From a virus (Duplodnaviria; Caudoviricetes): 27,776 nt of DNA. The stretch lies in the IMG/VR virus record IMGVR_UViG_3300032219_001080, positions 1 through 27,776 of that record; one strand, 5' to 3'. Under the pieces are notes generated by a model that was given only the letters and a program-made list of their open reading frames with translations, searched no databases and was not told the origin of the DNA. Numbering within the stretch: position 1 is the stretch's first letter; every line of letters starts with the position of its first letter. A program made the position numbers and the translations under genes. Below are positions 11,594 to 14,854 of this stretch, one piece after another.

Positions 11594-11611
11594 GTATTCC
11601 CCTTTGTTGTG

Positions 11612-11674
11612 TGTCTGACCTCGTCAGTGCCCGCATTACGGACAGACCCCCGAAGGGGTTTCGGTCTTAGGACA
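11612..11674 (-). ncRNA. Type II hammerhead ribozyme
   Basis: UGUC-CUAA-GACC-GAAA-CCCC UUCG GGGG-UC^-UGUCCG UAAUG CGGGCA-CUGACGA-GGUC-A-GACA; complete catalytic core, all three stems pair. Confidence 0.93.
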
Positions 11675-11816
11675 GTTGTCCGAGCAAGCCCGCTACATCG
11701 TTCAACCAACGAGACTGAAAGCCGTAACTGTCGTCTAGGTTTTCTTGCCCCGCCATCTCTCGCAATTTCTCGGCAAGCGCCTCGGCTAGCCTCTTCGTCT
11801 CTTTGTCTACGAACAT
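11667..11816 (-). CDS. Hypothetical 49-aa protein, first gene of leftward operon (not in ORF track)
   Basis: AAAGGGG SD; MFVDKETKRLAEALAEKLREMAGQENLDDSYGFQSRWLNDVAGLLGQLS. Confidence 0.72.
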   Translation of the reverse strand: MFVDKETKRLAEALAEKLREMAGQENLDDSYGFQSRWLNDVAGLLGQLS

Positions 11817-11823
11817 CTGTTCG
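11810..11823. promoter_or_regulatory. LexA (SOS) box
   Basis: CGAAC-ATCT-GTTCG, matches the Gram-positive/actinobacterial CGAAC-N4-GTTCG consensus; overlaps start codon. Confidence 0.8.
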
Positions 11824-12008: not shown

Positions 12009-12103
12009 CGAACGTATGTTCGCAATGCCACGCCGAGACAACACACAGCCGAACAAGTGTTCGCAAGGGAGACGACACAGCGCCGAGGGTGAACAAGTGT
12101 TCG
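12009..12103. promoter_or_regulatory. Three tandem LexA (SOS) boxes
   Basis: CGAACGTATGTTCG (12009), CGAACAAGTGTTCG (12050), TGAACAAGTGTTCG (12090); 41 and 40 bp apart. Confidence 0.8.
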
Positions 12104-12134: not shown

Positions 12135-12489
12135 CTCTCACAGTAGGCGAGCCTGTCTGCTAACTACTGCAAGCGGGGCATATACTTTTGCAAGCGCCGA
12201 TAGGTAGGGGTAGGGGTGTCGGTTCGTGCGTTTGTGCGTGAATGCGGGCGTGTGGGCGCGTGACCGCGTAGCGTGGGCGGGCGTTTGTTTGGCAACTGGG
12301 CATATGCCGAGGGTCGCGCGGACCCAGTAACGATATATCCTCTCTGTATATATGCACATTTGTGGCTGGAAAGTTGGCTCTAAATTTAGTGCTAAATAGT
12401 GTGGGTGGCTGTGTGGGTTTGGTTGTGTTTTTTGTTGGCAAGTGTTATACATCGGCGCCATTTGCGGAAAGAAAAAAACAGAAAAAAAA

Positions 12490-12822
12490 GAAGCACTGAA
12501 CGAGGGTGTCAGACGTTAGCAACATTGCTTCTCTTTCTTTGCGAGCAAGCCCAACGGGCGCGCTAGATGGTTTCACTGCCGTTGGCAACACTGTCGAAAC
12601 AGCATAAGAGTGCCTCCCCCACAGTTCCCGCCCCCGCGGAAGGTCGCCGTGGCATATTTCAGCCGACACCTTTATTTGATGAGATGACGTTCATCACGCT
12701 GCTTTTCTATTTCAAAGAATAGAAACCAACCCAGGTTCCCCTGTTTACGCCCCGCCACATGCAACCGTGGTACAGCCATGCGTGCATCGCTATCTCCCGA
12801 CAGTGACGACTTGTGAAGTTGA
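12490..12822 (-). ncRNA. Structured ncRNA, candidate ColE1 RNA II-like replication primer
   Basis: Own promoter, hairpins with GGGA, GGAA and UUCG loops and G-U pairs on the minus strand, G-tracts, downstream U-rich run; three blocks resembling RNA II. Confidence 0.65.
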
Positions 12823-12827
12823 CAGCA

Positions 12828-12855
12828 AGTATACACACACCAAAACAAAATGCAA
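12828..12855 (-). promoter_or_regulatory. Promoter for the minus-strand ncRNA
   Basis: TTGCAT-16 bp-TATACT on minus strand. Confidence 0.65.
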
Positions 12856-12860
12856 ACATC

Positions 12861-12869
12861 TGCTAACCT
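12861..12869 (+). promoter_or_regulatory. Extended -10 promoter for terminase (near-leaderless)
   Basis: TG-C-TAACCT ending 11 nt before ATG 12881; no SD. Confidence 0.45.
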
Positions 12870-12880
12870 GCAAAATACAA

Positions 12881-14854
12881 ATGGCACAGGGAATTCGTAA
12901 AGTTCCAGCAAACGACAAAGCACGTTTCTGGCAAGCAATCCACTCAGGACACACAACGTTAGACGCATGCCGCATCGCAGGTGTACACCCCAACACAGGT
13001 TACAACTGGATAAAGAAATCTAAAGTAGCCAAAGCAAACGCCGATGTTGCAGCAATAGAACTCACTAAACACACCCGCCGTCAAGGTGGCGTCCAATGGG
13101 AAGACGCAATGGACCTTGCCGAAGCAGCAGACCTACCACCAGCCATACCGTTAGACCGTCTCACCCCAGAAGCCCGCAGAGGACTAGACGACTTCCAATT
13201 CTTCCGTGAACACTACCTAGGACGTGTGTCTGCACCATGGCAAGTAGAAGCCGCACTAGAAATAGTTAAGTCTTTGGACAGCGAAGAAAAAGAATTCATC
13301 TGCCTAAACGTCCCACCAGGAGCAGGCAAATCCACTTTGTTCCACGATGTTGCCGTATGGGCAATCGTAAAGAACCGTGCCATCCGTGTACTCATCGGCT
13401 CAGCCAACCAAAACCTAGCCAAGATGTACTCCCGCCGAATTCGCGAAACCCTAGAACGCCCCAACCCTATGCTTGCTGACACAGAACTAGCCAAGAAAGG
13501 CTTAGCCCAAGACGCACAAGGATGCCTCTCCATCGACTACGGGCGCTTCAAACCAGCAGACAAAGGTGCGCTATGGCGTGCTGAAGAATTCATTGTTGAA
13601 CAACTAGACGGCAACGGGCTAGACAACAAAGAACCAACCGTCCGTGCATACGGTATCGACGCAGAGTTCATCGGACACCGTGCAGACCTCTGCCTCTTTG
13701 ACGACGTAGCCTCCACCGAAAACGCACGCGAATCCACAGCCCGTGACAAACTCCTAGAACGCTGGGACTCAATGGCAGAAGCACGTGTAGACCCAGGCGG
13801 CACCTTGGTTGTAGTCGGACAAAGACTCGGCTCAGGCGACCTGTATGCCCACTGTCTGAACAAAGTAACGTATGACTTAGATGAGGACGATTATGATGGC
13901 GAAGATGTCACAACTTCCAATGTGCTTGAGAAGCCTGAACCAACCAAGAAACAAAAATATAAGCATATTATTTATAAGGCGTACTACGAAGACTTGGATA
14001 CTGGTCCTAAGTCCAGGCGTCTTGACTCGCCTGCTTACCCTGATGGACCACTACTTGACCCCAAAAGGCTCTCGTGGAAAGACCTCTCGTATCTCCGTTC
14101 TTCAAACAATGAGCGCTTCCGTGTCATCTACCAACAAGAAGACCTCGCAGACGAAACATATCTTGTTGATAGAACATGGATTACAGGCGGACTAGGACAA
14201 GACGGCGTACTCTACTCAGGGTGCATAGACAACGAACGTCTACCAGAACACATCCCACCAGGATTACGCGCCCCAGTCATCTCCATCATCAGCATTGACC
14301 CATCTCCAACCCAATTCTGGGGACTCATCTGGATGCTCTACCAACCAGAACACAACCTGTATCACATCGTAGACATCCAACGAACCAAACTCACCGCAGA
14401 AAACCTACTCGGATACAACACAACCGATGGCTCATTCACAGGAATCCTCCAAGAATGGTGCGAACGCGCCCAATACCTCGGTTATCCCGTGTCCCACATC
14501 ATCGTAGAAATCAACGCAGCCCAACGATTCCTACTTCAACACGACTTTGTACGCAAATGGACAGCCAAATGGGGTGTCAACATCCTTCCGCACACCACAG
14601 CCCGCAACAAACTAGACCAAAACCTAGGAATCGAAGCAATCATCCCAACACTTGCACGCTCAGGCGCACTACGACTACCAACAATGCGCGGAAACTGGAA
14701 GACACTTGCCCTCGTAGACGAACTATGCAAGTGGACCCGCGACAAAAAGAACGGAACCGACCTAGCAATGGCGTTATGGTTTGCATGTCTACACGCACCG
14801 AACCTCACCACAATAAAACGTCCACCAAGACAGTGGCGACCCTCATGGATATAA
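12881..14854 (+). CDS. terL: Terminase large subunit with N-terminal HTH domain
   Basis: Walker A NVPPGAGKST, Walker B LCLFDD, coupling motif GQR, nuclease ISIDP, terminal D.A.A; start moved to ATG 12881. Confidence 0.92.
   Translation: MAQGIRKVPANDKARFWQAIHSGHTTLDACRIAGVHPNTGYNWIKKSKVAKANADVAAIELTKHTRRQGGVQWEDAMDLAEAADLPPAIPLDRLTPEARRGLDDFQFFREHYLGRVSAPWQVEAALEIVKSLDSEEKEFICLNVPPGAGKSTLFHDVAVWAIVKNRAIRVLIGSANQNLAKMYSRRIRETLERPNPMLADTELAKKGLAQDAQGCLSIDYGRFKPADKGALWRAEEFIVEQLDGNGLDNKEPTVRAYGIDAEFIGHRADLCLFDDVASTENARESTARDKLLERWDSMAEARVDPGGTLVVVGQRLGSGDLYAHCLNKVTYDLDEDDYDGEDVTTSNVLEKPEPTKKQKYKHIIYKAYYEDLDTGPKSRRLDSPAYPDGPLLDPKRLSWKDLSYLRSSNNERFRVIYQQEDLADETYLVDRTWITGGLGQDGVLYSGCIDNERLPEHIPPGLRAPVISIISIDPSPTQFWGLIWMLYQPEHNLYHIVDIQRTKLTAENLLGYNTTDGSFTGILQEWCERAQYLGYPVSHIIVEINAAQRFLLQHDFVRKWTAKWGVNILPHTTARNKLDQNLGIEAIIPTLARSGALRLPTMRGNWKTLALVDELCKWTRDKKNGTDLAMALWFACLHAPNLTTIKRPPRQWRPSWI

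Follow-up and report, generated by a model that had tools for sequence, protein, structure and literature searches.

How does a tailed phage that lacks recognisable replication genes copy its DNA? This question is raised by the window analysed here, a 27.8-kb virus record taken at its full length of 27,776 nucleotides, for which 44 ORFs were scanned. The proteins it encodes include RecE, an annealing protein, RusA, SSB, WhiB, terminase, portal and capsid; because WhiB is among them, we infer an actinobacterial host. No initiator, primase or polymerase was recognised among the 44 ORFs. Early genes run leftward, and the terminase arm rightward, from a non-coding gap, for which a preliminary description of this DNA had proposed a ColE1-type, RNA-primed replication origin. 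That the region holds no credible ORF, as had been stated there, was borne out.

The gap adjoins the terminase large subunit gene (12881..14854, plus strand; phrog_38, E 1.7e-59), a neighbour of the RNA described below and separate from it. By pattern only, TGCTAACCT (12861..12869, plus strand) is a candidate extended −10 promoter for this divergent gene. The terminase N-terminus (12881-13040, plus strand) possesses a small-subunit-like helix-turn-helix (phrog_4102 at residues 13-53); a separate small subunit gene was not recognised in the window. A type II hammerhead ribozyme-like sequence with an intact core (11609-11666, minus strand) directly precedes the first early gene; it scores 29.3 bits, which is under the Rfam cut-off, and similar sequences with covarying stems were found by pattern and inspection in 17 of 125 relatives. 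Palindromes of the form GAAC-N4-GTTC occur five times in the window against 0.4 expected, among other positions at 11811-11822, 12010-12021, 12051-12062 and 12091-12102, and are present in 21 of 99 relatives, with none found for the N3 and N5 spacing controls; they resemble the Gram-positive LexA box, which suggests host SOS control, although a tyrosine integrase was found in none of five complete genomes.

A covarying RNA family in the gap

All RNA features described below lie on the minus strand. A promoter-like site at 12828..12856, read as a −35 TTGCAT (or TTTGCA) and a −10 TATACT, has a predicted start near 12821. This leftward promoter had been noted in the preliminary description and was found again; the pattern by itself is weak (2 found against 1.1 expected), and a TAnnnT −10 upstream of the RNA recurs in alignment A1 of relatives. 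An optional 5′ hairpin with a GGGA loop (12786..12807), missing from several relatives, precedes the conserved type A core (12612..12782), which is ~170 nt long, pseudoknotted, and ends in a run of G. The core is closed by CAU (12780-12778) pairing with GUG (12622-12620). Within it, P2 (12749..12776) comprises two stacked helices that are 100% paired, with double changes at 5 of 7 pairs, and its loop UUGC (12764-12761) pairs with GCAG (12702-12699) as a pseudoknot that is paired in 28/28 sequences with three double changes, and compatible in 91/91 of a wider set. P3 (12732..12743) was recognised by inspection as a CAGG-GGAA-CCUG hairpin with a GNRA loop. The variable hairpin P4 (12704..12725) is 98% paired and shows double changes at 6/6 pairs; in long type A forms (e.g. 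L054, L069, L078), a conserved 40-50-nt subdomain is inserted in P4. P5 (12677..12696), a UGAUGA/UCAUCA hairpin with an invariant AACG, was likewise drawn by inspection and carries no pair count. P6 (12641..12671) is a near-invariant bulged hairpin, GGUGUCGGC...GCCACGGCGACC, and P7 (12627..12640) is a variable hairpin, the stem of which contains a DnaA box in some relatives. The G-run GGGGGAGG (12613..12620) lies 3′ of the closing helix and is a putative R-loop anchor. Further downstream, a hairpin and a terminator-like A-rich stem with a U-run (12482..12564, the A-rich stem and U-run at 12539-12482) vary between relatives. The minus-strand hairpins and the U-rich end listed earlier are all present in the sequence, with GCUGU-UUCG-ACAGU falling outside the conserved core.

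Folding of the window's single RNA sequence, on which the preliminary description had relied, is no better than that of its shuffles (z −0.85); it is the comparative structure that stands. We scored the named structure across 28 type A sequences against 500 shuffles, which ignore relatedness: 90.1% of cells were paired versus 77.2% in shuffles, double changes numbered 131 versus 43, and the covariation score was 0.40 versus 0.17, with 0/500 shuffles as high for each measure and slid controls scoring far lower. The count of further pair types was at shuffle level (412/500). Covariation support was strongest for P2, P4 and the outer part of P6; scores were lower for P3, P7 and the upper part of P6, which are misaligned in this test, and the low pair count of P3 reflects its misalignment in alignment A2. 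The closing CA:UG pairs do not covary because they never vary. The covariance model R1, which has the window among its training sequences, scores the window's core at 161 bits.

Terminase-adjacent regions of relatives were collected, as had been suggested. Among 79 loci selected through terminase, 66 have an HMM match to the element, in every case on the strand that does not encode the terminase. In all 60 terminase-selected loci with sufficient upstream DNA, the slot is occupied by the element or a related form (type A/B in 56, type C in 4). The type C RNAs (L060, L065, L076, L077, upstream of terminase) possess the GNRA region and the terminal G-run and do without P6; R1 misses them. The G-run is invariant in 42 sequences selected through terminase alone, and at least five G residues stand at the 3′ end in 57/60 terminase-selected loci, type C among them. 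Each of 11 near-complete genomes has a single R1 match, and about 470 stored viral stretches fit one strict pattern of the RNA.

No family in Rfam 15 matches the RNA core at gathering score; a mir-268 match concerns the terminator, outside the core, and was set aside. Searches with blastn against plasmids and annotated phages returned nothing or chance matches. A pattern scan of GTDB gave five matches, four of them chance by inspection (R1 has no match to L201 or L203), while L202 is a short contig carrying the element with a window-type terminase. The literature surveyed, with PMC10690425 represented by six supplements and not by its alignment files, holds no description of the RNA, and a fragment of it may be among the 8,495 unnamed candidates in that work. 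The element represents a genuine RNA family, uncatalogued and missing from Rfam, that comes in three subtypes.

Relation to ColE1 RNA II

The preliminary description had aligned three blocks of this RNA by eye with the ColE1 origin. Because eye-picked blocks need a matched null, we scored the best colinear ungapped blocks against shuffles: the best three reached 26 against 23.5±1.9 (46/300 shuffles as high), and for four blocks 26/300 shuffles were as high. Local alignments to ColE1 were at shuffle level under four scorings. Taken singly, block 1 is a variable stem with a family mean of 12.3/22 against 12.0 when shuffled, and block 3 is for the most part the variable hairpin P7, with a family mean of 10.5/17. 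Block 2, which corresponds to P6, is indeed conserved, yet forms a local hairpin. The pairing of its GCCAC with GUGGC of block 1 found no support; GUGG pairs instead with CCAC at 12770-12767, and there covariation is present.

For model searches, the comparison set comprised ColE1, three mycobacteriophage RNA origins and six plasmids that are listed or cited as ColE1-like and come from Pasteurella, Aeromonas and Vibrionaceae. With E values of up to 10 allowed, R1 has no match across the ColE1 origin; the lowest E reached anywhere in the ColE1, ColE1-like plasmid and mycobacteriophage records is 0.12. Opposite-strand promoter patterns are nearly absent inside the element across 127 clusters; none recurs there, and an RNA I is therefore not indicated, nor does the Rfam RNAI family match the element.

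Membership in the ColE1 family is thus not supported by the tests run, and the RNA is best regarded as an independent family rather than as ColE1 RNA II. It is very improbable that the element is a true, highly diverged homologue of RNA II, a descent that would be compatible with the origin role favoured below. By eye, a GNRA hairpin, UGUCGG..GCCAC and a G-run do follow in the same order in both, and the family block score lies a little above shuffles (4/40); all tests are nevertheless non-significant and the pairings of the RNA differ from those of ColE1. Against this reading it also counts that the 3′ half of ColE1 failed to align even to Aeromonas ColE1-like origins. Of the RNA-primed, ColE1-type origin first proposed, the kinship falls away, and the function gains independent support from gene content, genomic context and DnaA boxes.

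Gene content and genomic context

The preliminary description had noted that initiator, primase and helicase genes are lacking, and in complete relatives no recognisable family of these kinds, nor a polymerase, was found. A DnaB-type helicase or domain was found in 0/14 virus records of relatives, of which 13 are at least 96% complete and six have terminal repeats. PHROG scans of 158 non-core ORF representatives (at least 110 aa, seven genomes), many of which match no family at all, recognised no initiator, primase, helicase or polymerase; a ‘DNA primase’ match fell within a methyltransferase, a ‘clamp loader’ match within an AAA ATPase, and both were rejected. An initiator may be hidden among unannotated or short ORFs, and recombination-dependent replication via RecE, the annealing protein, SSB and RusA is possible.

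We surveyed the context of 101 loci that had been found by pattern and have 2 kb of upstream sequence. A divergent homologue of the window-type terminase lies within ~2.3 kb in 89 and is missing from 12; eight of these 12 carry a different terminase (L278, phrog_979) or an SSB/WhiB module in between. In one locus (L249), the RNA sits inside a module of RecE, annealing protein and WhiB. A family of small ORFs with a zinc-finger-like end was noted in the DNA-metabolism arm (L218:15544-15957, L249:3456-3845, L062, L227); it is loader-like by eye and matches no family.

In larger phages, the RNA lies 136-269 nt upstream, in the same orientation, of an ORF of 123-146 aa, after which comes a helicase loader (phrog_2289). 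This arrangement is seen in L131, a phage that encodes tape measure and tail sheath proteins, and in L244. The short ORF matches only the C-terminal part of an initiator (phrog_16167, of whose 315 positions 171-267 are covered, E 7e-14; also the O-like phrog_18020); an Atlas lead for it gave Phg_2220_C, DnaB_2 and DnaT domains. Of 25 long initiator homologues scanned, five have an N-terminal DNA-binding domain of the initiator kind, HTH_36 or Phage_rep_org_N. A search with the short-initiator protein gathered 42 loci, with the loader next in 41 and the same upstream gene family before the initiator in 22 of 25 representatives. Among the 41 informative loci, those with upstream DNA, 37 possess a conserved C-rich motif in the slot without the RNA and four possess the RNA without the motif, so that the two are mutually exclusive. 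The four belong to three lineages that group together (86/87, unstarred), and the exchange may therefore be a single swap event. The C-rich motif is itself a putative origin; the idea that it encodes the proline linker of full initiators was weak and was dropped, with 7/42 long homologues matching, some of which are probably over-extended ORFs. A headless initiator, a loader and a conserved C-rich motif behind a promoter also occur in 130-170-kb phages (L369-L407, upstream of ~2500; 81 viral stretches), and neither DnaB nor Pol A was found in the complete genomes of this kind that were tested. This group is a second unexplained origin type.

A third line of evidence comes from host initiator sites. 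Scanning 86 non-redundant loci for the DnaA box, we found an exact copy between −40 and +260 relative to the G-run in nine of them, a count that ranks highest among 1,680 permutations (mean 0.1). Pairs of boxes arranged head-to-head occur in 7/86 loci against 1 in 331,962 flanking bases. At 70 of the 86 loci there is no nearby box, and none within one mismatch is present in the window.

Other observations are neutral or adverse. GC skew at fourfold sites in G024 is negative in most bins in either gene orientation, and the cumulative curves of G024 and G009 have a maximum at the slot, not a minimum; skew does not support an origin at the slot and is uninformative or mildly against one. Downstream DNA hairpins with GNA loops favour the template strand (17 vs 5), not the strand that an R-loop would displace. 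Beyond one A, no conserved cut-site sequence was found 3′ of the G-run. Contig ends near the element are scattered and mark no genome terminus. One RNA-library contig from a relative (depth 2.8, no strand information) spans the element and begins inside the −10 box, and may therefore be DNA. On balance, an origin role, supported by gene content, the initiator/loader context and DnaA boxes, is the best-supported proposal for the RNA.

Proposed mechanism, alternatives and known systems

From the sequence, covarying structure, copy number and context laid out above, a model can be proposed in which transcription, folding, R-loop formation, cleavage and priming are predicted steps. We put at roughly 55% the probability that this RNA of ~170-230 bases is the phage replication origin, acting via a predicted R-loop to prime host-driven leftward DNA synthesis. 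Host RNA polymerase would transcribe it from the 12856-12828 promoter, starting near 12821; pairing of its ends would close a multi-helix pseudoknotted body and leave the G-run free behind the closing helix, from where it could re-anneal to the C-rich template and form the R-loop. By analogy with ColE1 only, host RNase H would trim the RNA 10-25 bases past the G-run, at ~12605-12590, and host Pol I would extend the primer leftward. According to the S1 Text of PMC8683028, ColE1-type origins lie ~20 bp after a poly-GC run; the RNA-DNA junction is therefore expected near 12605-12590 and not at 12615-12618, where the preliminary description had misplaced it, inside the conserved G-run (12620-12613). 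The host helicase would then be loaded on the opened DNA, with DnaA boxes helping in some members; the C-terminal domain of the phage initiator and the loader would assist in the larger phages, and host proteins alone would suffice in the window's 40-kb group. Transcripts that escape would stop at the U-run near 12490. More tentatively, and with the odds somewhat against it, the RNA could be a portable initiator that moves between unrelated actinophages, replaces the origin-binding half of a lambda-O-type initiator in large phages, and is the sole determinant of replication, lytic growth included, in the common 40-kb group of freshwater phages.

Two alternatives are unlikely to a similar degree. 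The RNA could mark the origin and only melt it, by transcription or an R-loop, leaving priming to host DnaA, helicase and primase with no RNA-DNA junction. All of the context evidence would fit equally well, the presence of DnaA boxes and of a loader suggests that a helicase is loaded, and no cut site is conserved; an elaborate invariant structure with a terminal G-run, however, exceeds what simple transcriptional activation needs. The other possibility is an RNA with no part in replication, placed at an early-promoter junction and acting in trans as a regulator, scaffold or catalyst. Its own promoter and terminator, the pseudoknot, GNRA loops and invariant unpaired bases would suit such an RNA, as a divergent-promoter junction would suit any early RNA, but this would leave unexplained both the DnaA boxes and why the RNA and the C-rich motif replace one another ahead of initiator and loader, and neither a ribozyme nor any other Rfam family matches the core. 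A cis-acting leader is unlikely because the next gene varies between groups and, in the window, is ~1 kb away with its own promoter.

That the RNA serves packaging, as a phi29 pRNA-like molecule or a transcription-dependent signal working with the adjacent terminase, is improbable. The divergent terminase in 89/101 loci and the lack of a recognised small subunit gene in the window speak for it, and the loop-loop pairing could be intermolecular. With the 12/101 loci that lack the window-type terminase, the RNA is not tied to one motor; some of its loci lie within replication modules, its distance from the terminase ranges from 190 to 2,250 nt, and a separate GGCAGACCC-like DNA motif is a better end or pac candidate. 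This candidate packaging or end signal, at ~12290-12345 (minus strand) in the window, consists of an AT-rich run, inverted G/C runs and then the GGCAGACCC-like sequence; it lies 85-430 nt past the G-run, fits a strict pattern in 94/144 loci, and is found beside type C RNAs also. Action of the structure as single-stranded DNA (an sso/ssi-type signal), to which a DnaA box in a hairpin stem of some members might point, is a very remote prospect, since invariant U-G pairs, positions that alternate between U-G and C-G, the GNRA loops and a promoter of its own fit a minus-strand RNA. Possible likenesses to lambda cos, RNase P and domain V of group II introns were considered and dropped.

Should the origin role hold, it would account for DNA copying without replication genes in a widespread group of freshwater actinophages; the primer RNA, at under half the length of RNA II, would suit structural work on fold-driven R-loop formation and might furnish a protein-free replicon for Actinobacteria. 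Even if it fails, the three subtypes make up an RNA family with strong covariation that Rfam does not contain.

RNA-based origins in tailed actinophages, of which the preliminary description knew none, are already on record and give the favoured reading a precedent: Wetzel et al. (PMC7157519) describe RNA-based prophage origins in the cluster A mycobacteriophages RedRock, Alma and Gladiator, in which, as here, a non-coding RNA is proposed as initiator in a tailed actinophage without RepA. The RNA of the window is unrelated to them in sequence, and these three of the five published origins match neither R1 nor the HMM. As described in PMC7157519, they adjoin parABS, serve the prophage, and are dispensable in lytic growth. 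PHROG scans of the window and its relatives, by contrast, matched no ParA or ParB, and the window's group differs further in that a tyrosine integrase was found in 0/5 complete genomes and no other replication genes were recognised.

The ColE1/pMB1 origin uses an RNA II pre-primer, RNA I and Pol I (PMC8683028, PMC7157519). With it, the RNA shares the lack of a Rep gene of recognisable family, a promoter-driven structured RNA and a G-run near the 3′ end; the ColE1 DnaA box lies ~100 nt past the ColE1 G-run, and some members of the RNA family likewise have one downstream. It differs in size (~200 nt against 550 nt for RNA II), has no antisense RNA I promoter, other pairings with a pseudoknot, and no detectable sequence or model similarity, and, unlike ColE1/pMB1, resides in 40-kb and larger phage genomes. 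Marine Vibrio replicons are described in PMC3035462 as RNA-dependent and without Rep, with an RNA I. The pSIO1 origin region shows a G-run like that of the RNA and does not match R1. R-loop priming at G-rich transcript ends, as predicted for the RNA, is used at phage T4 oriF/oriG and mitochondrial CSB II; T4 employs its own replisome, and neither system is known to involve the fold of this RNA. Lambda O/P and SPP1 G39P are initiator-loader modules; the window's own group does without both genes. In the larger phages, the RNA similarly stands ahead of the C-terminal domain of an initiator, with a helicase loader next; here, unlike in lambda and SPP1, the N-terminal DNA-binding part is missing and a non-coding sequence stands in its place.
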